Positions 7,300 through 61,056 of a DNA stretch of 64,000 bases are shown here, piece after piece (positions within the stretch are counted from its first letter, which is position 1; each line of letters opens with the position of its first letter). The position numbers were made by a program, and so were the translations under genes. A model generated the notes under the pieces. The model ran no database searches. It was given only the letters and a program-made list of their open reading frames with translations, and was not told the origin of the DNA. This stretch comes from Glaucostegus cemiculus (Eukaryota), in NCBI GenBank assembly GCA_976551045.1, contig CDPCPM010000083.1, forward strand, positions 1,302,001 through 1,366,000. The letters run 5' to 3'.

Positions 7300-7810
7300 A
7301 GAACGAGGACGAACTTGATTACAACATACAAGATCCTGAGGGAGACACAAGAGATCTTGATGAAGAGTCTCGACCCGAAACGTCGACTGTTCATTTCCCT
7401 CCATAGATGCTGCCTGACCTGGTGAGTTCCTCCAGCACTTTGTGTGTGTAGATCCTGAGGGATCTTGGCTGGGTGGAAATGGAGAGGGAGCTTCCTCATG
7501 TGAAAACTAGAGGTTAATATGTAACGATAAGGGAATGTCAGTTTAAAACAGATGGGGTAATTATTTCCTCTCTGAGGGTTGTGCGTCTTTGGGAGTCTCT
7601 TCCTCAAAGGGCTGTGGAAACAGTCTTTGAATATTTAAGGCAGAAGTAGATAGGTGCTTGATAAGGAAGGGGATGAAAGGGAAGATTGGAATGTATGAGT
7701 GAGTCAACAATCAGGTCAGTCTTGATCTACTTAAATAGCAGAGCAGCCTTGGGTGGAGGGGAGAGGGTGTGTGGGCGTGCGATCTACTTCTGCTCCTAAT
7801 TTGTTTCTGT
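7300..7810 (+). mobile_element. Degenerate CR1 3' fragment interrupted by insert 7344-7449
   Basis: CR1-like acatacaagatcctgaggg...ttcctctctgagggttgtgcgtctttgggagtctcttcctcaaagggctgtggaa. Confidence 0.7.
7344..7449 (+). mobile_element. Penelope-derived mini-insertion with hammerhead motif and 13-bp TSD
   Basis: Exact direct repeat agatcctgaggga at 7331-7343 and 7450-7462. The insert contains tgatga-agagtctcgaccc-gaaa-cgtc-gactg. Confidence 0.85.
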
Positions 7811-9239
7811 GTTTATAGAAAGCTACAATCCCCTCTGGAAGCCTCAACGTCACTCTCTTCTTAAAAACTATCTATATACACCTTACTCTTTGACCGGGCT
7901 TTCAGTCACCCCTTCAATATCTCTCTTTTTGCCACACTACCAGGCTGATATGCTCCTGTTCCTCAGAAACTTATATATTTTGCATTAAAGGTGCAAAATC
8001 AATGTAAGCTCTATCTTCCATTAAGGAATAATGGAGTATCAGAGCAAAACAACACCAGGGTTGGAATGAGTAGGTGAGAAAGATCTGCATCTGGTGGATT
8101 ATTGGAAGATGACGATGTCCAGTTTTTAAGGTTCTGGAAACAAGAAACGCAATTAGGAGGTAAAGGGGGTGAAAAAACATGGGAAAGGTTCATCCAGCCC
8201 AGTGGTTTGGGTCCCATCAGCTGAAGATTTCCACCACTTTCGTTCAAAGACATTCGTCTCCCTCAGATCTATCCAGTGTTATACAGTGTAGATCAGCAAC
8301 TCCTCCCTTGGGAAGCAATTGAAGTGTGGTAGTTCACAGGATGGTAGAGGACAGGGTACTGTCATTCAGAAACTTGGACAGATGAAAGGAGAAGGATTTT
8401 TCAGTTCATAGGTCATTGTTATAGTGATTAGGCTTCTGCCTCCAAGAACCATAGAGTCGGTGCAGGGTGACAGTTTCCTTCACTTGAAAAGATCTTCACA
8501 CAGAGGACAGGGTGCTCAGGCTGGGGTTTGATGCTCTTGAAAGTTACCTGTCAACTGAAAGAGCCTGGCTTCGCCAACTAAGTCTTCACATTATTCTTCC
8601 CCACTTTGGGAGTGAAGGTGGATTGTTACGACTTGTCAATCAACATCAGCACAAGAATTTAAACAAGTTTGCTCTTGGCACTGCACTTCCTGCAGCAGTT
8701 AGAATCCTTAAAACAATTACAAAGCCAAGTATACACTTTTAGGGGCAACTTAAGTCTTTACCTACCTGTCAAGGAAGTGACAGGATTAGGAGGAAGTTTT
8801 GGTTTCATGTCCTGCCCAATTTTAGTCTCCACTGAAATGAAGAAAGGGGATAATGAGCAGGGGTGGAAAACCAGCATTTCACCCTTTCCAAGGCACAACC
8901 CACCTGGGTCTGGCTAAATAGGTCAAGGTTAGCCTCAGGGGGTCAAACCAGTTTCCAAAAAAGAACAATTGACTGTCTTCTCTCAACTACAGGTTCCCCT
9001 CATGAGGGAATCTGGAACTAGTCTCTGTCTTAAATGGACAATTTCTTTCTGAAACAAGCTGTCCATTTAAGACAGAGAATTTCTCCTCTCAAGGATTTGG
9101 AATTCCTGACCCTGGAAAGCTGTGGAGCCCAAATTATTGAATGTGTTCAAGGCTGAGAGAGACAGAATTTTGCGCAACAGGTGAGGTAATGCTTATTGGG
9201 ATCAAGCAGGAAAGCAGAATCATGGACTGGTAGGGGATG

Positions 9240-9540
9240 AAACCTTTGGTCCACCAGTTCTATGCCAAACATCAAGCAGCCATTCACACCAATCCTGCAC
9301 TAACCCCATTTTATTCTCCCTGCATTCCCGTCAACTCCCTTGGGATTCTACCACTCACCTACACACCAGGGACAATTTACAATGGCTAATTAAGCTACCA
9401 ACCTGCATGTCTTTGGGACATGTAAAAAAAGCAGAGGAAACCCACACAGTCACAGGCTGAATGTGCAAACTCCACACAGACAGGATTGAACCCACAGGTC
9501 TCTGGATCTGTGCGGCAGCGGATCTACTTACAGTGCCATC
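9240..9540 (-). mobile_element. HE1-like V-SINE (CR1-type tail)
   Basis: Reverse complement of the family at 34303-34662: gaggaaacccacacagtcacagg...tgcaaactccacacagac. Confidence 0.8.
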
Positions 9541-10436
9541 ATGACTCCTAGTTGAGGCCAAAATTAGATCAGCCGTGACGTTATTGAATGCTGGAGCACA
9601 CACAAGGAGCCATATGGGCTGAACTGCTCTTATTTTGTATAAAAGGTCAAATTCCAGCCTGGCTTAAGACTATCAATCATAAGTTGCAATGATATTTGCT
9701 CAGCTGGTACAAGGAAATGTTCACATGTGTGAATCTAACATGCGCTGGGGGAAATCTACTGCTGGGTTCCCCAGACCCCAGCAGGTTGGATGCATATTTT
9801 CTGGCAGGTAAGATTCTCAGTTTATTCTAAATTCACCTAAAACGTTCTGCAGTTTGTAAAAGCAGCGGGGAACATAGTCCCAGGCCGTGTGCGGCAAATC
9901 ATCCAGTGTTGAGCAGGTCCAGTGCTCACTCTCTCCGGGTGACCACAACTCACTGCTGACTGCCAGGCTTTGTCGTGGCTGCGGATGTTGGCAACTGTTA
10001 CCGCACATCTTCTCAACAGATGGCCCTTGACAATATGCAAAGTAGATGCAACAGCTACCTGATGATGCCTTTGTGCAGTCCGGAGACACGTATCAGCACA
10101 ATCTGCAATTCAAATGAGCCAAGAAACTACCACACATCTTCACCGCTGTTTAAATATTTGGAATCACGCACAGATCAAAACAAAATGGACAACATTTGCA
10201 TAACTCCCCTGTTCATAGAATGCTGTGATCTACCATGAGTTTGCCGATCCCATTCAGGGTGATGGTCGAGGTTTCATCACTGTTAGCTCCCTCTCCTGGG
10301 GCTGGGCAGCAGGGAGACCAGCTTCTGCCCTGTAACTCCTTGCTGGAAAGTTCACAGGGTCTGGGGCAGGTTCAGCAGAGGAGGAGGTACTGGTTGTGGG
10401 TTGGAGAGGGCTTGGTTTCCTGGCCACCAGCAACAA

Positions 10437-10580
10437 AAGAACATAGAACATAGAAAAACTACAGCACAATTCAGGCACAAAGCTGTGCCGAACATGTCCC
10501 TAACACTGGAAATTACTGGGCATTCCCATAGCCCTCTATTTTACTTAGCTCCATGTACCTATCTAACAGTGTCTTGAAAT
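10437..10580 (-). mobile_element. CR1 3' end, same young subfamily as 40925-41430
   Basis: (agaacat)n tail and near-identical reverse complement of 41275-41430. Confidence 0.85.
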
Positions 10581-10709
10581 GGCTGTTCAGGTAAACTAAT
10601 GCACCCTTGGGTGGGTGGGTGGCTGTCCACCATCAACACTAGGACTAGTTTCAGGAGTGGGCACAATGTGAGAGGAGTTTTTTTTAAATGTAGTCACTTA
10701 TAGAACGAG

Positions 10710-11060: not shown

Positions 11061-11249
11061 CATCTCTGCAGTCTGCAGTATTAACAGATCTCAGCCTGGA
11101 CTTTCTAAGCAGTCCCATCATTTCCTGCCCAAAGGTCAGCTCATGGAATGTACCCTGTTCAGCTCTTAAGAAAGTACTTTGAAGACAGGTTGTAGCTTTG
11201 CTATCATATCCAAAGAGTTTCTCAGCACTTGCACTGAGGCTCATAGGGA

Positions 11250-11920: not shown

Positions 11921-13733
11921 TAATACCTAACGCTCTCCACAAAGGTGAACAATGGATCCTTGTGTGAGGTACTAGGTCAGTCTGTGACCAGAGGAAACCA
12001 AACTCTTGGAATGATGTTCGGGAGTGTGGTGGAGGTGGGGGAGAGCAGAAATTGGGAAGAGGGGAGAAATGAACTTGGGAATAAAATAAAAATTAACAGT
12101 AAAAGTAGTGAATCTCACAGTTCTCAGGCAGCTGCCCAATTTCCTGCCTCTCATTCCTAACGTGCACAGCAATGACAGAGATGCAATATTGAGCGGCATT
12201 ATCCTGGTGCTGAAACATCACATCACAAAGCCTAGGGACAGATGAAATATCAATGAAGCATATCAGAATGTAAACTATATTGAAAGGGGCAGGTTTTTTT
12301 ATTCAAACAAGCTCTTAGGGTACAATAAATGATGTGCCATTTGGATTACTTAGGATGAATTGAATTTCAAACAGTGCCCTGAAGATAGAAGTGTTTTGGA
12401 AGATGTTTCAGTAATAGAATTTACATCTGTCTATTGCAAATGAGGCAACTCATACCCGTGAGCACCAAGCAGCAGAGGGTTTTCTATTAGCTCCTTGCTT
12501 GGGAGAATGAAAGTAGTTGATCTTGGATGAATTCTTCATAAAAAGGACATGAAGCAGAGCCACCTCTGAGGCCCACCCAGGTCCTGAGGTCCAAGTATCA
12601 CAGGTGAATGTCTGGAAATTGGCTTCTGAATCCCTGACTCAAGAGTTTTCAACTTTTCACTCTTTGTCCCTAACTCATTCACTCCCTCCCTTGCCCAATT
12701 CTGTGGAGAATTGTTGGACACTGGGTTCCCCAACAATTAACTAAACAAGGAATGTCCTGTAGACCTGGGCTGACTTTGTTTGACGTCTGTATGACTTTGA
12801 CTCACAGACAAGCATTTTCATCATGAGCTGAAAAGAAAGGGGGCAATTTGGGGGTTCTGTGGCAGATATTAACCCCGGGACATCCTAGGGCCAACAAGCA
12901 CTTTGGAAATGTAATTATTTTGTACCATAATGAAATGGCAGCCAATTTGGACAGCGGTCACATAAATGAAAGAAATGACTAGATTATATTTGTAGAAGCT
13001 CTATTGGCCATGGAATAAATGATAGACAGGATTTGGTAGACCCCTTGGCTAGTGCAAGATCCCACAACAGAGGCAGAATTTCATCCCCATGTCCCGGCAG
13101 AACAGACTGAGGCACCACTCAACAAAATGGAAAAACCATAACCATAAGCATCATCGATTTACCATTAAATAGACGGTTTTATTCTTTTCACTCTCTATCC
13201 TTAACTCATTCTCCCACACTTGTACACACCATGTCTTCTTCTGGGGAAAATTGCTGGACGCTGGGTTCCCCTCTGATTAGCCAAACAAGGAGGGTCTTGT
13301 AGCCTGGGCTGACTTGTTCTCTTGGGTTGTTGGGGATTTTTTTTTGACAATGCCCAACCCACAGTGGACTTTCCTTTTCTTTAGACATAGTCCTGAAGCT
13401 CCAATGCCTGATTTATCTGAATTATTTATAGGAATATTTATGTAGGAACACAGGAAGGCACAGGCCAGGAAGGGAACATCACAATCTGCCTGATCATCTT
13501 CACAGATCACAGAACATCCTGCATCTCTCTGTCTCTCACACTCTTCAGTCACATCCTCTGCCAACTTGTTGACCATCCAGCAGAATTGCTTTGCAAAATT
13601 AAATCTCCTTGGTGAAGTTCAGGGCAGGTTTTCAGTTGGGCAAGCAAAACTTGTGATTTTAACAGTCTCATCGCTAGGTTAAACATGGGAAGAAATACCA
13701 ACACTCAGTGCTCTGCGCTATCAGGAAAGGTCT

Positions 13734-13958
13734 GGAGATACAAGGGACCACAGACGCGGGAACTCAGAGCACTGGAGGAACTCAGCAGGTCAGGAAGCAT
13801 CTATGGAGGGAAATGGACAGTTGACGTTTCGGGTCGAGACCCTTCATTTGGACTGATGTAGTCCAGATGAAGGACCTCAACCTGAAATGTCAATTGTCCA
13901 TTTCCCTCCATAGGTACTGCCTGACCCACTGAGTTCCTCCAGCGCTTTTTGTATTGCG
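13734..13958. mobile_element. Palindromic Penelope-derived mini-element with two inverted hammerhead-like motifs
   Basis: Arms of ~85 bp (13772-13854 and 13860-13942) are reverse complements around gatgt. TSD tcaggaaaggtct (13721-13733) / tcaggaaagatct (13959-13971). Confidence 0.85.
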
Positions 13959-14554
13959 TCAGGAAAGATCTCCCCTCATCCTTAGACACCAGGTGTGAAC
14001 ACTCAACAGCATAACGTTTGTTCTCCTGGAAGGGATAGCCTCATCTTATCTCTCTGCACCCCCACTACCATCAGCCGAGCAGTCCTCTCATTTTAGCTGA
14101 ACATTAATGTTAATCTTTTTCTGGTATTTTCCTGTCAAGTTGTGGCAGATATTAGGTAGCCTCCCATCCATGATGCAAGTTAATTCTACAATCTACAAGC
14201 TGTGCAAGTCAAGGGCACAGACTGGAAAATCTCAGCAAGCTTCTACCCCAGAAGACCTAATGGATAAACAGTTTGGAGTTATTTTCTCCTCTGTCATGCA
14301 GGACCTGAGTGCATGCTGGGCTCTCTGCACCGACAGTCAGCAGGCTATTGATCCATCAAGGCCACCTCAGGTGAGCTTGAATCTTTTCTCACCCAAATAG
14401 CAACTGCCACCCCGCCCCCCCCACCCCCCAACACACATACGCACTGGGGTCAGTGTGAACCTTTGTGACTGCAGACGGGCCTTGAGTCTGAAGTCCATCT
14501 GGTCTGCAGGACGTACTGTCCATCAGAGACTCAGATGTCTCCCTGGGAGATAAA

Positions 14555-16045: not shown

Positions 16046-16074
16046 AACACACACATATGCACACACACACACGT

Positions 16075-16810: not shown

Positions 16811-17128
16811 TGCCAGGTCACAGTGTGTAAAACACAACTTATGGATTTGCTGTGCATGAACTGATGAGCAAGCCTTGGATTGTAATGCTGTGTTGCTGGA
16901 TGAGAATACTGAACACAGGCTGCAGTTGACCCACCACACAGAAATAGCAGTGTGGGGGTGAGTTATACATGGTCACACAAAGCCACGCCAGGTATCACAG
17001 AGTAGCAGCAGACAAGAAGATATCAATATGCAACTCTTCCACGTTAAGTAGGTCTAATCATTCAAGGTTGCAGAGGCTGCGCAATGCATTTCTGATCTAA
17101 AATTTCATCTCGCATTGAATTCAAATTT

Positions 17129-17241
17129 TGGAAACACTGAGCAACACACAAAGATGCTGGAAGAACTCAGCGGGGCAGGCAGCAACTATGGAGGGGAATG
17201 GACGGTTGACATTTCGGATCAAGACCCTTCATCAGGACTGA
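17129..17241 (-). mobile_element. Penelope-derived repeat with intact hammerhead core boxes (sense to GSE1)
   Basis: Minus strand: cagtc-CTGATGA-a-gggt-cttg-atcc-GAAA-tg-tc-aaccg...gctgcctgccccgctgagttcttccagc. Confidence 0.8.
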
Positions 17242-17665
17242 TCACTTGTGTATGGTTTCTACCATGTTGTGCATTTAGTGGTAGTGATCAGGAGGAATTT
17301 CTCCTTTCAGTTTTAAATCCATAATATTGTGTTATACCATATGTACTGCTTTCCATAATTTTTCTTCAGAGCAATGCAGCTGGGTTTTCCTAACTTCTCA
17401 TTCCCTCAAAAACCAGCTACAGTGCCTTTACTTTTTCCTGGTCTGAATGAACAGCACAAGAGCAGCAGAGAATTATGAATGTTATACAGAAATATATATA
17501 CTGCCTTAATAGATCCCAAAGAAATTTACAACTGATGAATTACTTATTGAACTGCAGTCATATAAGTAGAGGTGACATCCAATTTGTAGACCTGATTAAG
17601 TCCTCCAGGAAAACAACAGGAGAAGTGATCAGGTAGCCCCTTTTTGGTGGTGTGGGCCAAAGGAG

Positions 17666-17965
17666 GCTGGTGAAGATGGGTTTAATGACATTGGTGCACC
17701 ATTGGCTGGTGAAGATAGGCTTAATGACATTGATGCACTATTAGCTGGTGAAGACTGGTTTAATGACAATAGTGTACCATTGGCTGGCGGACATGGACTG
17801 AATGACAGTGGTGCACTATTGGCTGGTGAAGATGGACTGAATGACAGCAGTCCTCTGTTAGCTGGTGGGCATGGGTTTAATGACAATGATGTATTATTAG
17901 CAAGTGGATATGGGTTGAGTGACAGTTCTACCATTAGCTGGTGGAGGTGGGTTGAACAACAGTGT
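17666..17965. repeat. Degenerate 39-bp minisatellite, about 8 units
   Basis: Units start at 17666, 17705, 17744, 17783, 17822, 17861, 17900 (37 bp) and 17937; consensus near gctggtgaagatgggtttaatgacagtggtgcaccattg. Confidence 0.92.
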
Positions 17966-18699
17966 TGGAAAAGGGAATGTAGCAGCCACAGACATGGTAT
18001 GCTTTACCAAATATAAACACTCTGTGGAGAATTCAGATTTTGGTGGAAAGCACTTAGCAGGCATGAGAATATTAGCTGCCAGTTTGCTCACAAGCAAATG
18101 TATGAGAGGGGCACAAAACATGTAGCTGATATTCTGACAACCCTTTAAAACTGATGACTAAAGAAGAATCTCCAACCCCCTCTGATGTTGGTCCTCACTG
18201 CACTGTAGAAGCTGGGTGGTATCCAGTCCTCAGGCCCACTCAGATTGGCACTGAATGCAATATTAAAACAGCTGTCCTGGTATTATTAAGACACTTTATT
18301 TCCCTCAGACAACAAGTATTGGCACCACTTTACCGTGAAGTGGTGGTGCAGGCAAGTACAGAGAAACATCACTCACTTTTAATGGGGCTCCACCATATTC
18401 TCCTATCAACTGAATAGCTTCTTGTCTGCAATACCAATTTACAGTGTCAGCGACTGGGAATACATGTACTCTGTATATGACAGATGAGAAGCGCTTGTAT
18501 ACTTGTTTTATCAGGAGAGCAGGGGACTTGGTACCCGATAGCTGGGAGGCAGAAGGGGTTGAAACACGTATTCAAAATCCACCAAAAACCAGAGAGCTCC
18601 ACTCGTCCATGGGGGCAGAATGAAGCGTAAGACCCAGCAGTCCCCTGCCCTCTCACTTGAGACGCTCCCTGCGCTCCGTGCTCTTCAGTGGCCGTCCCC

Positions 18700-19065: not shown

Positions 19066-19683
19066 CTTCATCTCAGACAACTTTCCATCCCCCTGGGGCT
19101 AGTGCTCTGCATATTAACAGTCATAGGCCACTATATATGCCATGCACATGATTGCATATGACATTCAGCTGATCTCTACAGGGCAGTCAAATTCTAAGGT
19201 CGATTATTATAAAACTGTTGGGTTTACAGAGGTTGTTTTTCTCCCTTTATGGCTTGATATATTTTTGTAAAGAGCCTTATTTTTCTCCACTCCTTTGTGA
19301 AATCGCCAGCTGACCCATAACTACATTAATTCCTCTCCTTAACTTTCCACACTGCCTCCTGATCAACAGCTTTTGAATTTGCTCCACCCCTTCACATTCT
19401 GTTGCCTCAGCAACCCCTACATCCTCCCCCCCGCACACCTCACCCTAAACCCAAGAACAATCTCCCCATCTGCTTCCACCCACTCTAGCTGGGTGGGTCT
19501 GATCACAGACTGGAGGGTCTACTCCGTGGAAAGGGTTTGGCTGGCTCGGTGATATAATTTAGCTGCACCAACTCATGGACAAAATCAAGGGAACTGAAAA
19601 CTGAAAGCTTTGCATTGATGTGACACCTTTCAAGACATCCCACAAGAAAAGCCGACGGAATTCTCTTGGAAAAGGACACTGTT

Positions 19684-19780
19684 CCAGTCCAGGTGAAGAG
19701 TCTCGACCCATTCTGTTGACTGTCCATCTCCCTCCACAGATGCCACCTGACCTGCTGAGTTCCTCCAGCATCTTGTTTGT
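19684..19780 (+). mobile_element. Penelope-derived repeat, degenerate hammerhead motif
   Basis: cagtc-caggtga-agagtctcgaccc-attct-gtt-gactg...tgacctgctgagttcctccagca. Confidence 0.75.
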
Positions 19781-20639
19781 TGACATTGTTGTAATGCAGG
19801 AAATGTGACAGCTAACTTGCACACAGAAGCTCCCAATATGATAATAACAGGGTAGCTGCCTGAATGATGCTGATTCCCCAATAGGTTTTAGCCAGGACTT
19901 TGGGCGATAACCCCGACCTCCAGGCCAACGTTTATTGCTCACTCTGCCCCAAAAGAACAAATTATTGGTTGTTGTTCGTGGGAGGTTATGCGAGGACTGG
20001 TTGTTGCATTTACAACAATACAACACTGCCTACCTTCAATAGAATTTCATTGGTTGCAAACAATTTTCAGTAGGATTGGAAAAAGGCTGAACAACCTAAG
20101 GCTGTGACAGGCAGGTGTTTTTTCTTTGTTTTAGCTTCTCATCATGTGCTTCTACCCATTCATCCTCTAGCTTCATCCAAGTTACTACCCAGGTCAACTT
20201 CTCCATCTGGTAGAGTGCTCCACATTATAATCACACCGAGCAAAATGTTTCTTCTTACTTCTGACTGGATTTATTGGTGACTACCTTAAAATTATGGCCC
20301 TTTGACTTGTACTACGCCATTTGGAGAAGTCACCTACAATGTTCAATCCTTTTATAACATCAAGGGCCTCAATAAGGTCACTCCAAGGCTGGCTCTTTTC
20401 CACAGGGTATAGATCCAGTCTGGGCAGCGTTTCCTGAATGTCATGCTCTCAGTTCTGGTTTGTAAATCCTATGTTCTACAGGCTTTGGAAGAATGAGCAG
20501 TCAATTCTTTGACATATAAGAATTTGAGGGGACTTGATAAAATAGATGTTGAGAGAGAATGTTTCCTTGGTGGGGGAGTTTAGAAACACAAACACTATCT
20601 CAGGATAAAGGTGCACACAATTAAAACTGAAATGATGTA

Positions 20640-23200
20640 CCATTTGGAATTTTCCAGTCCTCAGTCACCAGCCCTGAATCTGTAGAGGTTTGGAAGATTG
20701 TCTCTGCGATTTCTACCCTTACCTCCTCAGTGATTTATAAAGCATTTCAGCTCGACCAGGTGACTTATCCACTTTAAGTCCACCTAGCTTTTATCATGGT
20801 CCTTTTACAATTTTTAACCCACCCATTATCACATGTACATCTTTCTTTGCCGAGACTCCAGTAGCAACTTCTTCCTTGGTGAGGAATGGTGTAAATTTTA
20901 CGTTTAGCACCTCAGTCATGCTTAAATTTCCTTTCTTGTCTCTGATCTACCCCATCTCACATCTTCAACCCTCTTCACATTCACAGAATATGTCTGGATT
21001 CTTTTTTATGTTTGCTGCCTATCTTTTCTCATACTCTCTTTGCTTCTCCCATTCCCTTTTTCACTTCCCCTCTGAATTTCTGTTCCAAGTCTGGTTCTCA
21101 CTTGTGTTACGAAACTGGTATCTGCCTCATGCTCTTTCTCTGCTCCATTGTACCCTCTATCTTTTGTGTCATCTATGGACCTCTGCTTTAAACTTTACCA
21201 AACTTCTTCCTCACGGAAATGTATCTCAACTGTCATTGAAACATCTCCATCTTAGGGCCCTCCAGGGCCCTAATTCAGGAACATTTCAATACAATTCAGT
21301 AACATTTTTGCCTACTAGGCTTTGATTCCAATTTAAGTGAACCAGATCTTTTCTCATCCCAATGAAACTGCCCAATCTCCAACCAATTATTTTTACCCCT
21401 TTTCCATTGGTATTCTAAACCTTCTGTTGTGGTTGATGTTTCCTCGATGTTCCCTCACTGATGTTTGCTCCACTTGCCCTGACTCCTATTCCAGAACCAA
21501 GTCCAGCAATGCACCTTCTTTGTTGAAACGCATGAATCAAGAAAGTTTCCCGAATGGAACTCAGTAAGTCCTCTTTGCCTGTATGTTGTTGCTCTCCATA
21601 TCTCTAGGAAGGTTGACATTTCTACATTATCACTACCCTGTACCTTTTGCACATCTCTGCGATTTCCCTACAAATATACTCCACAATATCCTTCCCATTA
21701 GCTGTCAGTCTGTAGAATGGTCTCAACGATGTAATAGCAACTCTATTGATTAACTCTAAACAGATGGATCTGTCCCTGATGTCTCCAGCATGGCAATATT
21801 CACCTTAATTAAAACTGCCATTTCTCCTCCTTTCTTACCTTCCTTATCTTTCCTGAACACATTGTATCTCAGAATATTTAGAACCCATTCCAGCATTCTT
21901 AACCAGGTCTCTGTCATTGCTACAATATTGTAATCCTGCAATAGTTAATTGCACCTGCATTTCACAACCTTGTTTGATATATTTGCATTTGCACACGTGG
22001 CAATTTAAAAAAAGCGTCCTATCTGGATGCATCACGGCTTGGTATGGCAACTGCTCTGCCCGTGACCGCAATAAATTGCAGAGTTGTGGACACAGCCCAG
22101 CACATCACGGAAACCAGCCTCCCCTCCATGGATTCTGTCTATACTTCTTTCTGCCTTAGTAAAGCAGCCTGCATAATCAAACACCCCGTCCACCCTGGAC
22201 ATTTTCTCTTCCCCCCTCTCCAGTCAGGCAGAGGGTACAAAAGCCCGAAGCACATACCTCCAGCCTCAAGGACCACTTCTATCCCGCTGTTATAAGACTA
22301 TTGAATGGTTCCCTAGTACAATAAGATGGACTCTTGACCTCACAATCTACCTTGCACCTTATTATCTACCTGCGCTGCACTTTTTCTGTAGCTGTTACTC
22401 TTTATTCTGCATTCTGTTATTGTTTTACCTTGTAGTGGCTCAATGCATTGTGTAATGAATTGATCTGGATGAAAGGAATGCAAGACAAGCTTTTCACTGT
22501 ACCTCAGTACATGTGACAGTAATAAAGGAATTCCAGTTTAACCTTCTGTACTCTGTTTCTGTCTAAAAACATCCTATTTCTGGTCCTATTTCTCTCTCTC
22601 AAGTCATTTTGCACATTTTTTCTCCTTTTAAAATGCTACCTCCTGTATCCAAACACCTGCCAAATTAGTTTAAACCGGCCCTAACAGCACGAGCAAACCT
22701 TCCTCTGAGGGATGGGTCGGTCCCAGCTCTGCTGAGTTGAAATCGGTCCAGCCTGTAAGGTTACAGATCCCACCTCCCATAGAACTGACCCCAATGCCCC
22801 ATGAGTCCAAAGCCCTCCCTGCAGCCACACACTTATCTGACCCGTCCTCCTATTTTTATATGCAATGGCATGTGGTACAGTGAGTAATCCGGAGGTTACT
22901 ACTTTTGAGATCTTACTTCAAGATCTCTTTCCTAACTCCTTAAAATCTGCCTGGAGACCCTCATCCATTTTTCAGTCTTTGTCATTAGACTTTGACCTCT
23001 TTTTGTCCTCCCCCTCCAGAGTCCTCGGCAGTAACTCACCGACGTCCTTAAGCCTGGCACCATGGAGGGAACATAACATGCTGGAATAACTTCTGTAACT
23101 ATAGAAATGTCTGTCTGCTCCTCTTAATTATAGAATCTCCCACATCTCTTTGTCTCTTGATCTCTCTACTCCCATCCTGTACAGTTGAGCAACCCATGGT
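20640..23200 (-). mobile_element. Large decayed CR1 LINE retaining ORF1 (SGNH esterase-like) and AP-endonuclease remnants
   Basis: Minus-strand pieces SKVVTSGLLTVPHA, CREGFGLMGHWGQFYGRWDL and RFARAVRAGLN* (22665-22910), plus NIVAMTETWL...YNVFRKDKEGKKGGEMAVLIK (ORF 21756-21941). Many frameshifts. Confidence 0.8.
22010..22535 (+). mobile_element. Rex1/Babar LINE 3' fragment (family 1) nested in CR1
   Basis: SVLSGCITAWYGNCSARDRNKLQ / RVVDTAQHITETSLPSMDSVY...HPGHFLFPPLQSGRGY, the Rex1-type ORF2 C-terminus. Tail tttcactgtacctcagtacatgtgac-aataaa. Confidence 0.85.
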
Positions 23201-28369: not shown

Positions 28370-29025
28370 ATGTGGATGCCAAGAAAGCCAAGAAAGCTCA
28401 ACAGCACCTCCACTTCCTCAGGAGGCTGAAGGAATTTGGCATGTCCCCTTGACACTCACCAACTTTTATTGATGCACCATAGAAAGCATCCTATCTGGAT
28501 GCATCACAGCTTGGCATGGCAACTGCTCTACCCAGGACTACAAGAAACTACAGAGAGTTGTGAACACAGCCCAGCACATCACGGAAATTAGCCTCCCCTC
28601 CATGGACTCTTGTCTATACCTCTCGCTGCCTTGGTGAAGCAGCCAGCATAATCAAAGACCCCAACCACCCAGGTCATTCTTTCTTCTCTCCTCTCCCATC
28701 AGACAGAAGATACAGGAGCTTGAGGGCACGTACCACCAGGCTCAAGGACAGCTTCTATCCCACAGTGATAAGACTACTGGTTCCCTTATACGATGAGATG
28801 GACTCTTGACCTCACAATCTACGTTGTTTGACCTTTCACCTTATCGTCTACCTGCAATGCACTTCCAGTGTAGCTGTGACGTTTTACTCTGCATTCTGTA
28901 TTGTTTTACCTTGTACTACCTCAAAGCACTGTGTAATGAATTGACCTGTATGAACAGTATTCAGGACAAGTTTTTCACTGTACCTTGGTACAAGGGACAA
29001 TAATTAACCAATACCAATACCAATG
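28370..29025 (+). mobile_element. Rex1/Babar LINE 3' fragment (family 1)
   Basis: aagaaagctcaacagcacctccacttcctcaggaggctgaagg...atagaaagcatcctatctggatgcatcacagcttgg...; (ccaata)n tail. Confidence 0.88.
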
Positions 29026-30264: not shown

Positions 30265-30690
30265 TCTCACTGGCAAGGTCATGTCTAATTGCCCTTGAGA
30301 AAGAGAAACAGAGTTGAAATTTCTCTTTCCACGGGTGCTGCCTGACCTGCTGAGTGTTCCCAGCATTTTATGGCTTTATTTCTGATTACCAGCGTCTGCA
30401 GTTTTTTTTTTGATTTTCAATTAGCCTTGAGGTGACTGGTGAGCAAGCTTCTTAAACCAGTGCCATCCTTCTGGTGAAGGTAACTTCCACCCCCACCGAC
30501 CCCCTGATGTGACTGGGTGGGGAGTTCCAGGGTTTAGACGCAAAGACGGTAAAGGACTGGCGATGCATTTGCAAGTCAGGCTGCTGCGCAGCTCAGAGGG
30601 GAACCTGCAGGTGGTGGTGTTACTATGCGCCTGCTGCTCTTGTCCTTCACGGGGGGGGGAGGGGGAGCAGTCAGAGGTTTGGGAGGTGAT
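30265..30690 (-). mobile_element. CR1-group LINE family B 3' fragment containing a Penelope-type insert (about 30305-30415)
   Basis: ccttctggtgaagg...gggagttccagg...gagggaacctgcaggtggtggtg is shared with 55410-55840 and 59150-60200. Insert reads gctgcctgacctgctgagtgttcccagcatttt. Confidence 0.65.
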
Positions 30691-36385: not shown

Positions 36386-36802
36386 ACTGGAGCTTTCATG
36401 GCCTCTAGGTGTACATACCTACAAGAAGCATTGCTCCCCATTGGTTCTATAGCCAGAACACCTTGTATTGTGTTTGGTGCTGTTGCAAGCAGTAACAGAA
36501 ACAGGAAGCGAAAGGTACATTGTATGGAAGAATTCAAACTGTTTCACAACTTCCTCCCTCTGTACCTAATCTTCACTTACCACAAACCTAGTGCAGACAG
36601 CATGACTAATATACAATTCAGCTGCTATCTAATAACATTAGACTACAGGGAGAATCACTTCTGAAGAACTACCACAAAACTGGCAAATAGGTCATGGAAA
36701 ATGTTTACATACAAACTATTTTAAAATAAATTGCTCCATGGCTGCATGAATTTAGGGTTTTGACGCACAATGGAGAGGGGATGGTCACCTTTTGTGGGCG
36801 AA

Positions 36803-37680
36803 GAAAGTCCTGAAATGACGGGTATAGAAAGTCCACAATGATAGGTGATAAAGGTCCTCAGTGATAGGTGTAGAAAGTCTTCAGTGATGGGTGTAGTAGG
36901 TCAGGCAATACCCCGTGTGCTTAAAAGCTTATACAGGTTATATGTGTTCTCAGCAGGGCCATTTATTACAGCCTAGTATAGACCTGAAGGAGAAGCACTG
37001 AATAAAATGCTCCACCTCTATTATTAAGTTTTCACTCAACCAAGTAAGAATATTTCACTGCTATATTGTGATCATGCAACAGACAAATTGGAGATTAGGC
37101 TTTCTATACATATCCCTGTAGACTTTCTACACCCATCACCAAGGACCTTCTACACCCATCACCGAGGACCCTCTACACCCATCCCTGAGGACCTTCTACA
37201 ACTATCACTGAGGACCTACTACACCAATCATTGAGGACTGTAGTAGGTCCTCAGTGATGGGTGTAGAAAGTCTAGTGGTCTGTGTAGAAATTTCTCAGTG
37301 ATGGGTATCGAAAATCCTCATTGACGGATGTAGAAGGTCCTCAGTGGTGAGTGTAGAAAGTCTACACTGATGGGTGTAGTAGGTCCTCAGTGCTGGGTGC
37401 AGAAGGTCCTCAGTGATGGTTGTAGAAAGTCTACAGTGATGTGTGTGGAAAGTCCTCAGTGATGAGTGCAGAAAGTCCTCAGTGATGAGTGCAGAAAGTC
37501 CTCAGTGATGAGTGCAGAAAGTCCTCAGTGATGGGTGTAGAAGGTCCTCAGTGATGGTTGCAGAAGGTCCTTGGCGATGGATGTAGTAGGTCCTCAGTGA
37601 TGGGCGTAGAAAGTCCTCAGTGATGGGTGTAGAAGGTCCTTGGTGATGGGTGTAGAAAGTCTACAGGGATATGTATAGAA
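36803..37680. repeat. 23-bp minisatellite (tcctcagtgatgggtgtagaa[a/g]g) present in both orientations
   Basis: About 4 units forward at 36803-36902, about 5 inverted at 37120-37238, about 18 forward at 37239-37670. Confidence 0.93.
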
Positions 37681-37880
37681 AGCCTAATCTCCAAATTTTC
37701 TGTTGCATGACGACAATATAGCAGTGAAACATTCTTACCAGGTTAAACTAAAACTTAATAATAGAGGTGGAGCACTTTATTCAGTGCTTCTCCTTCAGGT
37801 CTATATTAGGCTGTAATAAATGGCCCTGCTGAGAACACACATGAGCTGTATAAGCTTTTAAGCACACGGGGCATTGCCTG
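36902..37880. repeat. Long inverted repeat (arms about 36902-37238 and 37545-37880)
   Basis: caggcaataccccgtgtgcttaaaagcttatacag... is the reverse complement of ...ctgtataagcttttaagcacacggggcattgcctg. Pairing continues through ~220 bp of unique sequence and into the array. Confidence 0.95.
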
Positions 37881-40221: not shown

Positions 40222-40812
40222 TTGACACTCACCAACTTTTATTGATGCACCATAGAAAGCAGCCTATCTGGATGCGTCACGGCTTGGTATGGCAACTGCT
40301 CTGCCGAGAACTGCAAGAAACTGCAGAGAGTTGTGGACGCAGCCCAGTGCGTCATGGAAACCAGCCTCCCCTCCTTGGACTCTCACTGTCTTTACCTCTC
40401 GCTGCCTTGGTGAAGTAGCCAGCATAATCAAAGACCCCACCCACCTGGGTCATTCTCTCTTCTCTCCTCTTCCGTCAGGCAGAAGATACAGGAGCCTAAG
40501 GGCACATACTGCCAGGCTCAAGAACGGCTTCTATCCCACTGTGATAGGACTGTTGAACAGTTCCCTAATATGATGAGATGGACTCTGACCTCACGATCTA
40601 CCTTGTTGTGACCTTGTACCTTATTGCACTGCACTTTCTCTGTAGCTGTGACTCAACTCTGTACTGGTATCATTTTTACCTGTACCACCACAATAGACTC
40701 TGTACTAACTCAATGTAACTGCACTGTGTAATGAATTGACCTGTACGATCAGTGGGCAAGACAGGTTTTTCATTGTATCTCAGTACAAGTGACAACAATA
40801 AACCAATACCAA
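40222..40812 (+). mobile_element. Rex1/Babar LINE 3' fragment (family 1)
   Basis: TSRCLGEVASIIKDPTHLGHSLFSPLPSGRRYRSLRAHTARLKNGFYPTVIGLLN; tail aataaaccaatacc. Confidence 0.9.
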
Positions 40813-40924
40813 AACAGGTCCTGTTTGGCCTGCCATGCACAGGATATCACCCTGCTGTTTAGAAAGAGGGTTCAATTGACCAACTGAATTGTGGAATAGA
40901 TGTGGAAGCCATATGTGGAAGCAA

Positions 40925-41430
40925 CTAGATGTGGAAGCCATAGAGAAGGTGCAGAGGAGGTTTACGAGGATGCTGCCTGGAATGTGGAGCATGCCTTATG
41001 AGAGCAGGTTGCAGGAACTTGGCCTTTTCTCCTTGGAGAGGAGGATGAGGGGGGACCTGATAGAGGTATATAAGATGATGAGAGGTATTGATCGGGTAGA
41101 TAGTCAGAGGCTTTTCCCCAGGGCTGAAATGGTGGCCACAAGAGGACATAGGTTTAAGGTGCTGGGGAGTAGATATAGAGGAGATGTCAGGGGTAAGTTT
41201 TTTACTCAGAGAGTGGTGAGTGTGTGGAATGGGCTGCCGGAAGCAGTGGTGGAGGCGGATACGATAGGGTCTTTCAAGAGACTGTTAGATAGGTACATGG
41301 AGCTAAGTAAAATAGAGGGCTATGGGAATGCCCAGTAATTTCTAGTGTAGGGACATGTTCGGCACAGCTTTGTGCTCCGAAGGGCCTGAATTGTGCTGTA
41401 GCTTTTCTACATTCTATGTTCTATGTTCTA
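40925..41430 (+). mobile_element. Young 5'-truncated CR1 LINE
   Basis: Uninterrupted frame DVEAIEKVQRRFTRMLPGM...TRGHRFKVLG...FFTQRVVSVWNGLPEAVVEA..., ending in (ttctatg)n. Confidence 0.95.
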
Positions 41431-51092: not shown

Positions 51093-52006
51093 ATTCAGAG
51101 TGGCCCATGTAATTTCCCTGTTGATTAGCTGTGGGAGTGAGGGGGGGGGAGGTGAGATGGCAGATAGGGTCTTGAAGTCTTACCAGACTTATAACAACCC
51201 TACTGGAAATCATTCTAAGTGTGTGAAGCATCCATTTGCCTGGCTGTGGGATTATCTGATATGGTAACCTGCACTGCCATGATCATTTACAGTCCAGGTG
51301 ACAACAGACCTGCCTCATCTGATTTTCTTCCACCTGCTGTCTGCTCTTAAATACGATTCCTTTGACTGCTTTGATTATTTGATTATTGTTTGACAATTCC
51401 AGCGATTCTGAAAATACTCTCTCATTTTCTAGGCCACGAAAATGTGATGAGGGAATCATTTTGTAATGAGGTGTTTTGTAGGTGGAGTCAATAGCTGGTC
51501 TGGAGAAAGATATTTTCACACAGTCCCTCACTTGCCTTCTGCAATGCAAGTTGGATCATTGCAAATGTTTCTGTTAAAAGTAATATGAAATTCAAAGGTG
51601 CAAGGCTCTGGTGTGCCCTCATAAAGGTTTCAACTCCAGAGCAATTTTTAACAAGGCAAAACATGTTTCTTATTCGTCTAAACAAGTGGAGGGAGCTGAT
51701 GAGATACCGACTCTTCACCCATGAGACTTGCAGTGCCAGTCCAGCCCACCCCAGATAGGCAGGGTGCTGGCTGCAAGGTCTCCGTGTGAGCTACTATAAC
51801 CTAGGCCCTGGTGGGAACAGATCCACTGCACAAAACTCCTCCTGATTTGTTTAAGTCAATTTGTTCAAGGTCAAAGCCCCACTTCAGCAACAAACAAAAG
51901 AATTTGGCTGGCACCCATTAATGAGTCACTGCACTGTTGGGGGCAGCAGTCCTTCGGTGGTATATTAAACTGCCTGCCCAGCATGATGTACATGACCATG
52001 TGGTAT

Positions 52007-52150
52007 CACAGAGACACGAGAGAGAGACTGCAGATATTGGAAATCTGGAGCAACACACACTAAATGCTGGAGGAACTCGGTAGGTCAGGCAGCATCTATG
52101 GAGAGAAATGAACAGTTGACATTTCAGGCCGAGACCCTTCATCAGGGTAT
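52007..52150 (-). mobile_element. Penelope-derived repeat with intact hammerhead core boxes (sense to GSE1)
   Basis: Minus strand: CTGATGA-a-gggt-ctcg-gcct-GAAA-tg-tc-aactg...gatgctgcctgacctaccgagttcctccagc. Probable TSD accatgtggtat (51995-52006) / accatggggtat (52151-52162). Confidence 0.82.
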
Positions 52151-53079
52151 ACCATGGGGTATGTCAAGTATGAACAGGGGATCAATTCCTTGCAGTCAAG
52201 CCATAATTTACCCCTCAAGCAATGTTACAAAATGAGGTGGTTTGGTCATAATTGCTTTGTTGTTTGTGAAGTCTTGCTCAGTACAGAGCAGCTACAAATG
52301 TACTTCACTGCCCACAAAATGCTTTGGTAGACCATGAAAGGCAGTGCATAAATGAAAATCTTTCTCCATTAGCTCATCTCTCTGAAGATCTTGGTCTTGA
52401 GGAGGGAGCCCCATTCCAATTGCTATCCATTGTCAAAATGTGCATGCCCAGGCAGAATGGGTGTGATGCTTTCCATGGCCCAAGAGCTTTCAGATAATCG
52501 TGACTACATGTGTATGATCACTATGACATCATAGTGATGTCTTGAGCTAACTAGCATTGCCTTAAGTTTACAGAGACTGCAGTCAAATCTCTCCCCACAT
52601 TCAACTGGTGTCCATGTACCAAAGGCAGCAAATTCTGAATAGGCCCTCATAAAAGTGAAGCTGCCGAAACGCAGGAGTTTTCTCGTTGCTGTTTTCGACA
52701 CCCCATCTCCCTGCTGTGGACTGGCCTCGATGCCAATGGTCTACTATCACAGCCTGGGCTCCACTCCACCCTGGCTACTCTGACTCGAGGTAGGGGCATT
52801 CCCCAAAATGAGAACCTGCTGGAGTCTCCATCGGAAGAGAAGGAAAGCTGAGAGGGAGGATCGGGAGCGGGTGGAGAGATTCTGAAAGCCACAAATTACA
52901 GGAAAAAGGGTGACATTTCCTTCCCCAAATCTGAAGTGTGAAATTTATAGAGGAATTAAGCCCCATCATTTAGTGAAATAAGCAACAAAAACACCAAAGT
53001 GAAGGTGGGGGTGGTGAGGAAATGAAAAACACCCTTCACTAAGCAAATACAAATGACCAAATAATCAGCATGGACAATG

Positions 53080-56139: not shown

Positions 56140-56660
56140 AATAATGAGAATGCTGAAAATATTCAGTTGATCAGGCATCGAGCTGCAGAGGGAAAACAGA
56201 GTCAATGTTTCAGGTCCAACTGCTGTCCATTTTATAGATGGTACACATGGTGCCCCGTTGCTAGAATGCCTGTGTGCTTAAGGTACTAGAAGGCATATCA
56301 ATCCAGTGTACTGGTGAAAATTACTTGACCTGAAACATTAACTTCCTTTCTCTCTACACAGATGCTGCTTGACCTGCTGAGTATTTCTGGCATTTTATGC
56401 TTTTACTTCATGTTTCCAGCATGTAAAGTATTCTGCTTTGACATCAGTGATTGCTTTGCAGGTCACAGTCATTCAATCTGCAACTGTGACCCTGACTTTC
56501 TGGTCACCTATCATTTAATTCTCCACTCCTACTCTGGCATTGTTGTCCTCGCATCCAAAGCTGTTCCGAGAAAGCTCGAAGCAGGTTCAAGGAAAAGCAC
56601 TTCATCTTTTGATCAGACATTTCCCAACAGTAAGATCAACAATTTCACATCTTCCTAGCT
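56140..56660. mobile_element. Decayed Penelope-like element: inverted terminal-repeat pieces plus GIY-YIG endonuclease C-terminal remnant
   Basis: Terminal repeat inverted at 56145-56215 and forward at 56320-56440, followed by DCFAGHSHSICNCDPDFLVTYHL and, in another frame, ARSRFKEKHFIF. These resemble the recalled PLE motif DRFxEHLRSVxxxDxxLPVAxHFN...RKLEEQHLIFRL. Confidence 0.6.
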
Positions 56661-57334: not shown

Positions 57335-57495
57335 GGAAAATGCTGGAAACACTTGGCAGGTCAGGGTCCCTCAGGTATAATGAAGAGTCTCACGACTGTC
57401 TGTGTCCCTTTTCACAGATACTGCCTGACCTGCTGAGGGTTTCTAGCATTTCCTGTTTTTGTTTCAGATTTCTAATAGCTGCAGTTTTGTTTTCA
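57335..57495. mobile_element. Palindromic Penelope-derived mini-element (degenerate)
   Basis: aaatgctggaaacacttggcaggtcagg ... cctgacctgctgagggtttctagcattt. Confidence 0.7.
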
Positions 57496-59149
57496 TTTTT
57501 AACTCTTCCCCTTCAGCTCCTTTTCCAGCTCTTCTTCAATCACACCCCTACTACCTATCTCAATCAGTAGGATCAAATTATTAAGCATAAAGACCAATGG
57601 GCACAGTCCATGCTAGAGGTAAATGCTGAGAGCAATAAACTATGTTACACGTGCCCCTTCTATAAAAGGCTTCCCCATCCCAAGGACAAGGCAAAAAGAC
57701 TTTAAGAGTAACCTTCAAAAATGGATCTCCGATCAGCTCCAAATGCATTGGCCATTGAGTGCTGTTATATCTAATCAGCAACCTTACAACAAAATGGAAC
57801 TACTCCTCCAGCATCTATTTTGGCTCCAATAATAGGTATAGCCACCTGAATGGGAAATCTAATCTCCCTCACAAAACTGCCTTGCAAGGGATTCCACTGG
57901 CATTTTAAAAATAGCTCATTAATCCATGTCAGATCAATTAGTCCATACAAGCTGTCAACCCTGGTTTCTTTTTCACCCTCCTTACTGTGTTTTGTTTTAT
58001 GCTCAGCTTAAAGAGGATCTGCGTTGCCAACACTAAGGCCTGCCTCACCAACGTGCCTCATCACTGTGCTCAAATGGAAGGGAATTGGCAAATACATCCC
58101 AACTCCCCTCACACTGTGCTCAAATTAACGGACTCCACAGAAAGCAGGTACAAAAGGAGGCTGCGGTCCTTTGCGTGCACAGTGTGTTGATCTGCTAATA
58201 AAAGTTTTAACAGGCTACTTCATAAAAAGCATCAGGCTACCAAAGCAACATTGTACTATAAATGTTTAAAGTGCAGTAACAGCCCTCTGTCAAGGCTTTC
58301 TAGGCAGTGCACAGTGTGTAAGGCTAATAAACACTTCGGGCTGACTATACTCATCAGTTTTAGGGACATATGTTGCTGCTGTTATCGGTGTCATTACACA
58401 GCAGTAAAGTGTAAAAATTGATTACAATGGCATTTATCCCTGTCCACCGACAGATGCTATGAAACCCAGGGAAGGGAGAATGAACATCTGGTCAACCTGC
58501 CTTCTACGCAGGTGTTGAGCAAACAAGAGCCCTACCCTTCCTCTTGCCCTGCCAGATTATTTCAACGGATTAACCCCTTAACAGAAACACCCTGCCTCGT
58601 TCCTGAAGGATTACAACCTTATAAAATAGTGCACTCCCATTTCTCTCAGTAACAGGCAGGATTCATGCTTATCACCAATAATAACAGGTACCACAATAAT
58701 TTGCAATGAGATTCTCTTACGTTGAAGAAACAAGACCAGAACTTAATATACATTTCAACCACACTTGCTTGGAACTGTTTCGGATAAAACCCAGCCTTGC
58801 AAAACAAGCTGCAACAAGCCTCCAGACAATCATTCACAAGAGAAGTCCCGACCGGGTTAATACGTAAGATGTGAATTCTACTGTTTCTTCCTTCTGATGA
58901 AGCCTCTCTATCTTCCCCTTGAGTTCCAGATCTCAGAGATTTTAACTGTAAGGTTAGACTGGAGAAGCTGGGGCTGGATCGAAGATGGTTGAGAGGTGAT
59001 CTGGTAGAGGTCCAGGTGGAATAGAAAAAGGGAAATTATTCCCATTAAGGGACTGTTCAAAGAACAGGAGGCAGAGACTTAGAATTTTGGGCAAAATTAC
59101 ATGGAGGATGCAAGGAAAATATTTAGTTGTTCGCTTTTTGGGACTGGGG

Positions 59150-60200
59150 CAAAGCTAGAGTTTGTTATTCATCCATAACTACCCGTGAGATGATGGCCAG
59201 CCACGTTGAAGTGCTGTGGTCCTTCTGGTGAAGGTGCTCTCACAGTAGTGTTGGGGAGGGAGTTCCAGGACTTAAATCCAGTGTCCATGAAGGACCAGTG
59301 ATATATTTCCAGGTCAGGGTAGTATGCAACTTGGAGGGCAGCCTGCGGGTGGAGGGGGTGGTCCCGCGTGCCCGCTGCTCTCGCGCTTCTTGCCGCTAGA
59401 GGTTGCGGGTTCAGAAGACGCAGCCAGAAGTTGGGGGTTCAGAAGATGCCGTCAGAGGAGCCTTGGTGAATTAAGTGTGGTGCATTTTGTACACACTGCG
59501 GCCACTGTGTGCTGGTGGTTGGAAAAGTAACGTTTAAGATGGCTAATGGGGTGTCAGTCAAGCAGGCTACTGTAACCCTGGATGGTGTCGAGCTTCTTCA
59601 GAGTTGTCAGATCGGCACTCATCCAGGCTACTAGAAGGCATTCACTACACTCTAGACTTGTGGCTTTAGATGGTTGAGGGGACTGAGGGTGTCTGGAGGT
59701 AAGTCACTTGCTACAGGATACCCAGCCTCTGACTTGTTCTTGGAGCCATAGTATTTACATGGTTGCTCCAACCGAATTTCTGGACAATGGTGACCCCTGG
59801 ATGTTGAAGTTGGAGGACCCAGTGATGGCAATGCAGTCACTATAAGAGTTGGTGGCTCAACAGTCTCATTTTGGGGATGATCATTCGTGCCACAACAGTG
59901 ACAGACAATGTTAATTGCCATTGATTAACCCATGCATGATTGTAGGCATGGACTGCGTTCACTTGCTGAGGATCTGTGAATGGAATTGAACATTGTGCAA
60001 TTGTCAATGAACTTCCTCACTTCTGACCTTACTAAGGGAGGAGGGTAGTTGATGAGGCAGTGAAGATGGTTGAAGCAAGGACACTGCCCTAAGGAACTGC
60101 TGCAATGATATCCTGCCACTGAGATGATTGACTTCCATTAACCACACCCATCTTCCGTTGTACATGTTATGGCTCCAATGATGAAGTACTTCATTTTTTG
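59150..60200 (-). mobile_element. CR1-group LINE family B fragment including RT remnant
   Basis: ORF 59925-60119 CLINYPPPLVRSEVRKFIDNCTMFNSI resembles the RT motif FINDLP.....V.MFADD; 3' part shared with the 30265 and 55410 copies. Confidence 0.7.
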
Positions 60201-60907
60201 GCGCAGCAAACCCCAAATTCACTGCTTTGTTATGGCAATGGAAACAGAATCAGTCCGTGCCTTCAAAAGGAATCTGGATAGGCAGTGAAGTGATGATGAT
60301 TTGCAGGGCTCTGGGGAAGAAGTGGGAAGAATGGGACTGGCGGACTGCTCTACAAGGAATTGGCAGAGACTCTATGGGCCGAATGGCTACCATCTGTGCT
60401 CTAAATAATCTACGATTCTAGCTTTCTCTGGAACTTTTGCCCAGAAGTACTTGTCAGTTCCAAGCCTCTTCTGCAAAGGCTTTCCTGGCTCGTCGGGTCA
60501 GTCGCTGGTACCTTGCCCAAGCAGCCATGCTTCAAAATGTGAGCTATACAACAGCAAAGAAAGGATTTCGCTCTGAAAAACAGGTGCACATTTGCATCCT
60601 GCACCCGTCAGACTTGCAGCAGAAACACACGTTTTAATTGGGCTGTGGATTAGCCTTGGCTGCGGTGAGGGTGCCATTATGTTGCACGGAAAAGAATAAA
60701 TTTAGCAAGTGTTTATCGTATTAATCACAGTGCAACTGCTGGGGATGAGCAATGTGCATACTGGCTAATGTGGCAGATTTGGGTCTGAAAACACATGCGA
60801 GTCTTTAAGCAATGGGAAGGCGTTCAACATATATGAAAATAATCAAGGTGAGGGAGGTCATTAAAAGAAAGTATTGCTGAACTGGGTAAGCAGATGATAC
60901 ATGGGGT

Positions 60908-61056
60908 GGGAGCTAAAAGCAAGCTGCTGGAGGAATTCAGTGGGTGAGACAGCACCTGTGGAAGGAAATGGACATTTTGGGTCATTTCCCTCCGCAGATG
61001 CTGCCTGATCTGCTGAGTCCCTCCAGCAGTTAGCTTTTGCTCCAGATTCCAATATC
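60908..61056. mobile_element. Palindromic Penelope-derived mini-element lacking the hammerhead centre
   Basis: ctgctggaggaattcagtgggtgagacagcacctgtggaaggaaatg / catttccctccgcagatgctgcctgatctgctgagtccctccagcag. Confidence 0.75.

Follow-up and report, generated by a model that had tools for sequence, protein, structure and literature searches.

Terminal-repeat inserts in the window

The 64,000-nucleotide stretch of the Glaucostegus cemiculus genome analyzed here (contig CDPCPM010000083.1, positions 1,302,001 to 1,366,000; the window) contains ten related short inserts, which a first-pass annotation had described as independently inserted, protein-free units bearing a minimal hammerhead ribozyme. 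All ten sites are copies of one repeat (blastn; profile E values 3e-11 to 2e-37), and they are worn terminal-repeat copies of an abundant Penelope-like element (PLE) of Neptune type, not a separate ribozyme family. We number the repeat from C3 of the CUGANGA box (position 0); the 5' strand of stem I occupies -5 to -1, and the predicted hammerhead cut lies between +27 and +28. Short copies of the repeat are called stubs, and they end in either a short or a long tail.

Independent insertion is supported by target-site duplications (TSDs), of which three were recovered as described. The first is 13 bp long and exact (7331-7343 and 7450-7462) and encloses an inverted, 11-bp tip of the long tail (7344-7354, minus strand) and a forward arm (7355-7449, plus strand), which runs from -2 to +92, ends in the short tail, carries a C3 to T change at 7357 and has lost most of the 5' strand of stem I. 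The second, 13 bp with one mismatch (13721-13733 and 13959-13971), flanks a palindromic insert made of an inverted arm (13734-13855, minus strand; inner end at -5, decayed long tail) and a forward arm (13860-13958, plus strand; start at -4, short tail), both with a broken hammerhead core. The third, 12 bp with one mismatch (51995-52006 and 52151-52162), surrounds a stub at 52007-52150 (minus strand), which extends from -1 to the long tail, has four extra bases at its 5' junction and retains the core boxes (C3 at 52145), the 5' strand of stem I being absent. All three inserts had been said to start with the inverted 3' terminus of the repeat; this is correct for the tip at 7344 and the whole arm at 13734, but not for 52007, an ordinary copy on the minus strand that finishes in the long tail. 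A fourth possible TSD of 9 bp with one mismatch (at 19675 and 19782) is marginal (the 95% score of the null is 7) and accompanies a stub at 19682-19781 (plus strand) that starts at -8, ends in the short tail and has lost its GAAA box.

Around the stub at 3697-3829 (plus strand; start at -4, AGTCC; long tail; broken core) a TSD was looked for and none was found. The stub at 17122-17240 (minus strand) starts at -5 and keeps its core boxes, with three of five stem I pairs remaining and the closing pair broken. The other copies have lost all or most of the motif or belong to an older type: an older-type arm at 30324-30404 (plus strand) has no hammerhead sequence at all, an inverted arm at 56140-56230 (minus strand), likewise of the older type, lacks the CUGANGA box, the insert at 57335-57485 (plus strand) consists of a short inverted piece (57335-57365) and a forward arm (57378-57485) whose hammerhead is crossed by an 11-base deletion, and a palindromic insert at 60912-61070 lacks the CUGANGA box in both arms. 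The palindrome at 60924-61029 was also considered as a microRNA hairpin and rejected, its weak Rfam score lying far under the gathering score. The older-type forward arm at 56305-56431 (plus strand), whose hammerhead is decayed, is no protein-free unit: it continues directly into an endonuclease remnant (56447-56610, plus strand) and is part of a longer, old element. This remnant, already recognized as GIY-YIG-like, matches the part of the parent that encodes the endonuclease (profile E value 2e-5; two collinear tblastn pieces, E value 0.024) and represents the frameshifted C-terminal half of that region, followed by pyrimidine-rich DNA resembling a 3' untranslated region (UTR).

The parent element

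The Penelope-like parentage suggested by the first-pass annotation is borne out, as the same repeat ends elements of about 3.5 kb with reverse transcriptase (RT) and GIY-YIG domains elsewhere in the genome. Walking upstream from the repeat leads to copies whose 5' ends are staggered, the longest reaching about 3.5 kb in locus L166, where the N-terminus of the open reading frame (ORF), RT, GIY-YIG, a pyrimidine-rich 3' UTR and the terminal repeat follow in this order. RT and C-terminal GIY-YIG are collinear in one broken ORF in L166 and L168, and every copy seen is broken. Pfam returned RVT_1 (E values 9e-6 in L088 and 0.0095 in L093) and GIY-YIG (E value 0.011), the RVT_1 match at 9e-6 and the GIY-YIG match both being below the Pfam cut-offs; no family was reported for five of six translated pieces in one set and two of five in another, and a PDB sequence search with a 381-residue RT piece gave no match. 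Among 30 loci found by their endonuclease region, 28 end in the repeat, about 300-400 bases past the coding end.

A CX4CxxC linker is present in 9 of 15 translated copies and a CxxC before YIG in 12 of 15. As the Neptune/Nematis clade is defined by a CX2-5CxxC linker before GIY-YIG and CCHH cysteines (PMC8557442), these motifs fit a Neptune-type, endonuclease-bearing (EN+) parent, with the putative choice of Neptune over Nematis made by motif and host type. The element resembles EN+ PLEs of this clade in having RT followed by C-terminal GIY-YIG, a CxxC between GIY and YIG and the CX4CxxC linker, and likewise in its partial tandems, an inverted 5' copy, a tail of 30-40 bp at one end, heavy 5' truncation and TSDs (PMC8557442). 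The pseudo-long terminal repeat (pLTR) occurs in the parent family as a partial tandem and as an inverted copy, with an optional tail and a TSD; inverted pLTRs, an optional tail at one end and solo pLTRs have been described before (PMC3846280).

Among 30 loci containing the 5' part of the ORF, the repeat runs directly into the ORF in at least eight and up to ten (L279, L280, L283, L285, L287, L293, L296, L297, L299 and L301). The ATG follows the long tail at about 45 bases and C3 at about 175 bases and is not part of the stub. Since the repeat stands both at the 3' end and directly before the ORF, the stub corresponds to the non-coding 5' leader, with the hammerhead first and the tail behind it. 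L299 starts at -3, enters the ORF and then continues with a second repeat that starts at -4. Mini-elements of this kind, consisting of a repeat, the first 200-400 bases of the ORF and a second repeat, and differing in breakpoint from one to the next, are found in L299 (1250-1950), L279, L295, L282, L294 and L286 and look like products of template jumps. In L287 (1357-1420) a joint that leaves out about 62 bases, between the short-tail site and a point immediately ahead of the ATG, is covered by 18, 17 and 10 reads in three RNA runs of one study; the reads come from one strand only and the joint is absent from the contig run. It could be an intron in the 5' UTR spanning the tail or a single transcribed copy with a deletion.

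Abundance and lengths

We sampled the genome in 67 stretches of 10 kb at round-number coordinates (670 kb) and found 74 repeat loci, one per 9 kb, which extrapolates to about 3 x 10^5 mostly broken loci in the assembly of 2.85 Gb; the density in the window (10 per 64 kb) is thus ordinary. Fourteen of these loci extend upstream, and 14 are two-stranded. From the tail toward the RT region, coverage in the sample falls from 84 through 61, 26, 17, 10, 7 and 3 to 1. Lengths are hence continuous up to RT-containing copies, and 39 of 87 mapped arms extend 20-1000 bp upstream into the element, which speaks against the non-autonomous family considered earlier; a continuum of this kind is what the first-pass annotation had named as refuting a distinct family. 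The other option raised then, extreme truncation of PLEs, comes close and is incomplete, because the 5' ends of about one third of the arms cluster in a 9-base interval, which random truncation does not produce.

Ends of the inserts

Ends were mapped with a 41-mer located downstream of the cut site, which has 1859 exact matches in the genome; 90 of the 100 matches listed, all on contigs C1-C10, were fetched, and removal of two second arms and one duplicate left 87 arms. A second set of 203 arms was drawn from all loci and is enriched for long copies. In the first set, 39 arms begin upstream of -12, spread to -1007, 3 at -12 to -9, 27 at -8 to 0, and the remaining 18 inside the motif, for the most part where an inversion joins. 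If ends fell at -8 to 0 at the rate seen upstream, 2.2-2.9 would be expected there against the 27 observed (binomial p about 1e-19). In the second set, 18 arms start at -5 or -4 and 8 at -2. Cleavage by the hammerhead was also tried as the cause of the 5' ends and rejected, as only 2 of 203 arms begin at the cut site (+28), where no peak is seen. Exact nested counts over the whole genome drop from 4163 to 1937 across -3 to -9 and from 1937 to 1164 across -10 to -16; nearly half of the exact-core copies continue upstream, while the fraction ending at -3 to -9 is roughly a quarter to a third.

It is likely that this peak marks the start of the element RNA. The sequence at the peak is YCAGTCC, which we take to be initiator (Inr)-like. 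In subfamily B, a younger sister of subfamily A, a TATA-like box precedes the A by 31 bases in 10 of 14 copies and by 32-33 in three and is missing in one, by a pattern that was loosened to admit two variants. The pLTR of a rotifer element also combines TATA with Inr (PMC3846280), and an intron and an internal promoter are known from Penelope of Drosophila virilis (PMC2377424). Breaks in the reads of three RNA runs and in the contigs of one run are most frequent at this boundary; one run (X15) is possibly the assembly's own source and not independent.

The 3' ends of the 87 arms are bimodal, with 41 at +85 to +111 and 46 at +124 or beyond, and the two sites lie about 35 bases apart (the reference stops matching at +127; the true end is at about +131). 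Among 27 palindromes, 21 combine one long with one short tail, two have both tails long and four both short. Of 60 simple inserts, 11 yielded a TSD, 9-15 bp in length. Each 3' end site is located about 10-13 bases past a predicted hairpin with a CAGCA/ATCTG-type motif on its 3' side (fold of 52007-52150, minus strand), a possible priming signal.

The hammerhead motif and its decay

At the level of the genome, the majority sequence is the minimal type I hammerhead that had been proposed (CAGTC-CTGATGA-A-GGGT-CTCG-ACCC-GAAA-CG-TC-GACTG), with both CUGANGA and GAAA present. The majority sequences from 223 arms of subfamily A and 34 of subfamily B share the CUGANGA and GAAA core, an NUH site, stems I and II and a palindromic stem III, and within the motif the subfamilies are identical except at N7, loop II, H17 and outer stem I; such retention of the core is expected if the parents kept it. 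Subfamily B (L306-L335), which has a CUGAAGA core, a GUU site and a clear TATA box, supplies most intact-pattern matches: 22 of 30 fetched loci among the 1688 that match an intact-core pattern belong to it. One palindromic subfamily B insert (L313, 1500-1570) contains a pair of directly repeated hammerhead motifs spaced 38 bases apart, the only near-dimer seen.

To speak of ribozyme-bearing units was nevertheless an overstatement, for the motif is broken in every copy of the window and in 52 of 58 sampled copies that span it. Core and stems are intact in none of 14 arms of the window, and all or most of the motif is gone at 30305, 60908, 57335 and in the inverted arm at 56140. A descriptor of the minimal hammerhead found no match in the window and a single locus in the 670-kb sample (none in shuffled sequences), and an Rfam comparison of the window yielded no hammerhead family at E values up to 1. 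Among the 58 copies, CpG positions, including the catalytic G12, are kept in 57-76% compared to about 85-98% elsewhere, and only six copies are intact. After insertion the hammerhead decays like neutral DNA, and there is no sign of selection. By eye, older copies suggest a possible compensatory change in the stem, with AGTT/AACT in place of AGTC/GACT, a comparison that is confounded by CpG decay. In predicted folds of the monomer and the dimer, stems I and II are kept and the core is mis-paired, while folds of three copies from the window gave z-scores of -1.4, -0.6 and -0.4 and no hammerhead structure.

Minimal hammerheads in the pLTRs of PLEs are mostly single, associated with truncated elements, and cleave weakly as dimers (Cervera and De la Pena 2014, PMC4209133). 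According to the same work they share with the present motif the CUGANGA and GAAA boxes, an unpaired base before stem II, the G10.1-C11.1 pair, palindromic positions 15.2-16.2 without loop III, a short stem I and the location in the pLTR; unlike those of Schistosoma, with a stem II of 7-8 bp, stem II here has 4 bp. The hosts listed in the accessible text of that study are fishes, coelacanth, Xenopus and reptiles, and cartilaginous fish are not named there. Compared to this literature, the present case comprises about 3 x 10^5 related loci, most of them broken and 1688 with an intact-core pattern. Our searches found no report on such stubs in cartilaginous fish, most subscription journals being outside their coverage.

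Origin of the stubs

Most stubs are probably dead ends of reverse transcription by the Penelope element itself and not a mobile family in their own right. The element RNA would start at the A of YCAGTC (-4), and the element protein would nick the target and prime at one of two internal sites (at about +95 and +131), as its counterpart in a lizard does in vitro. Copying of 100-135 bases followed by run-off at the 5' end of the RNA would leave a stub flanked by a TSD, and priming from both nicked strands, with one site per strand, would give palindromes whose tails differ, one being long and the other short. A tandem transcript from read-through, or a template jump (as L299, L279 and L295 suggest), would allow copying to proceed into the 3' UTR and the ORF and to stop at random, producing the length continuum. 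The hammerhead would be a passenger, because stubs span the uncut site and the motif decays like neutral DNA after insertion. The lizard protein is that of a Poseidon element of Anolis carolinensis, which nicks and extends both strands, begins reverse transcription internally, at two neighboring sites delimiting the tail, depends on RNA located 3' of them and uses uncut RNA as its main substrate (Frangieh et al. 2024, PMC11167929). The present element is similar in its two adjacent 3' ends near the start of the ORF, downstream of the hammerhead, and priming on both strands would fit the palindromes; a 5'-end peak at the pLTR or short run-off inserts are not described in the accessible text of that study, in which the steps of Penelope retrotransposition after priming are treated as unvalidated.

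Several observations weigh against this origin. Poseidon belongs to another clade than the present Neptune-type element, and its ORF begins within the hammerhead (PMC11167929). No peak of molecule starts or ends was found in the three RNA runs, which are standard libraries, probably from another species, and swamped by passive copies. The 5'-end peak spans 9 bases and has sub-peaks at -5/-4 and -2, the latter also resembling a splice acceptor (polypyrimidine-CAG); the arms that define it belong to subfamily A, which has a weak box (TTATT), whereas the clear TATA box, with the loosened pattern, belongs to subfamily B; and the 90 loci come from ten contigs only. Junctions of TSD-verified inserts show no clear preference, with untemplated bases in four cases versus microhomology in seven. 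Finally, two sequence variants differ in their ratios of short to long copies (6:13 versus 42:26, p = 0.035, with rough typing), and one site differs at p = 1.4e-4 before correction, which leaves room for a short master copy.

Such a master is what a true non-autonomous family would require, similar to short interspersed elements (SINEs) or retrozymes, in which short copies are transcribed, re-mobilized by the Penelope protein and processed by the hammerhead. Very high copy number, TSDs, similar lengths and the existence of non-autonomous PLE derivatives (PMC8557442; bioRxiv 10.64898/2026.07.22.740005) would suit this idea, yet both sequence variants contain long as well as short copies, sharing of derived alleles is no higher among short copies than between short and long ones (permutation p = 0.54; about 80 informative sites in 66 copies, hence low power), and the 27 palindromes each have their own junction, the only repeated one being a natural microhomology. 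Head-to-tail arrays of stubs are absent from the window and the 670 kb, where the two direct repeats both lie in ORF-bearing remnants, the cut site shows no peak of 5' ends, and stubs lack a predicted upstream promoter box and, by analogy with Poseidon (PMC11167929), the region 3' of the priming site to which the protein binds. Animal non-LTR retrozymes are tandem PLE derivatives (bioRxiv 10.64898/2026.07.22.740005), and the stubs resemble them as non-coding, dispersed monomers with a type I hammerhead related to PLE pLTRs, but in contrast to their tandem units with an intact hammerhead each, stubs are single or inverted, have broken motifs and are continuous with coding elements. We thus regard an independent family as highly unlikely. 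In longer insertions, recombination between the two direct repeats, to which, or else to deletion, solo pLTRs have been ascribed (PMC3846280), would retain the TSD, and two-repeat elements such as L299 exist; however, the shared length is only 100-135 bp, copies with the 5' part of the ORF are rare (one of 82 groups), and palindromes with one long and one short tail cannot arise in this way, which makes it exceedingly improbable as the source.

Ordinary random 5' truncation, with the peak at stem I being an alignment artefact or caused by pausing or fold-back of the RT at the CAGTC/GACTG helix, would account for the real length continuum, and older subfamilies with other 3' UTRs inflate the class of terminal-only loci in the random sample (60 of 74). 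CAGTC and GACTG are complementary and 20 of 27 palindromes have an inner end at -8 to +3, but of 203 arms without an inverted partner 28 end at -8 to +1 and none at -9, -10, -13 or -14. Pausing at the helix would be expected to stop synthesis at its 3' base (+32), not beyond its 5' strand, and the peak persists within one subfamily of known upstream sequence; we consider this explanation unlikely. A 3' splice site at the boundary, with a spliced RNA or splicing intermediate as template of the stubs and its exon starting at TCCTGATG (-2), deserves little credence. The polypyrimidine tract and CAG before -2, the 8 of 203 arms that start there, and the D. virilis Penelope intron, whose end coincides with helix I's 5' end (PMC4209133), are in its favor. 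Short copies have no common upstream exon, however, TSDs where seen lie within about 7 bases of the stub, and starts at -5/-4 (18) outnumber those at -2.

Beyond this element, run-off copying from the leader might be more general. We are slightly inclined to think that a large share of Penelope-like insertions are integrated cDNAs of a 'strong-stop'-like kind, primed in the 5' leader, run off at the capped start of the RNA and made by a dimeric enzyme with one priming site per nicked strand; the term 'strong-stop' was not found in the PLE literature searched. If this were true, the tens of thousands of stubs in this genome would serve as a fossil record, resolved to single bases, of where transcription starts, of the two priming sites and of template jumps in this class of retroelements, and would show that the RNA being copied is not cut by the hammerhead. 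As a ribozyme or as an element family the inserts are ordinary, hammerheads in PLE pLTRs, inverted ends, tails and solo repeats having been published already. Their possible importance lies in the statistics of their ends, as about 3 x 10^5 loci offer testable predictions (RNA start at -4, asymmetric priming of the two strands, cut RNA not used). For annotation, stubs should be masked as Penelope debris and not be counted as ribozymes or microRNA hairpins.

Other features

No host gene was recognized among the 10 open frames of at least 130 residues in the window. A 39-bp tandem repeat (7.4 copies) at 17600-18016 lies in an open frame of 138 residues with repeats of 13 residues and is possibly an exon. 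Positions 36802-37880 contain a minisatellite array with a 23-bp unit and an inverted segment of 337 bp, and a coding remnant similar to long interspersed elements (LINEs) is located at 40880-41338. Outside the window, loci L256 and L257, 130 kb apart on contig C10, have identical flanks and represent either a segmental duplication or a duplicate in the assembly. Two further dispersed families in the window (22011-22535, 28449-29016 and 40222-40811; 11497, 34389, 46741 and 63588) are probably 3' ends of LINEs and a SINE.

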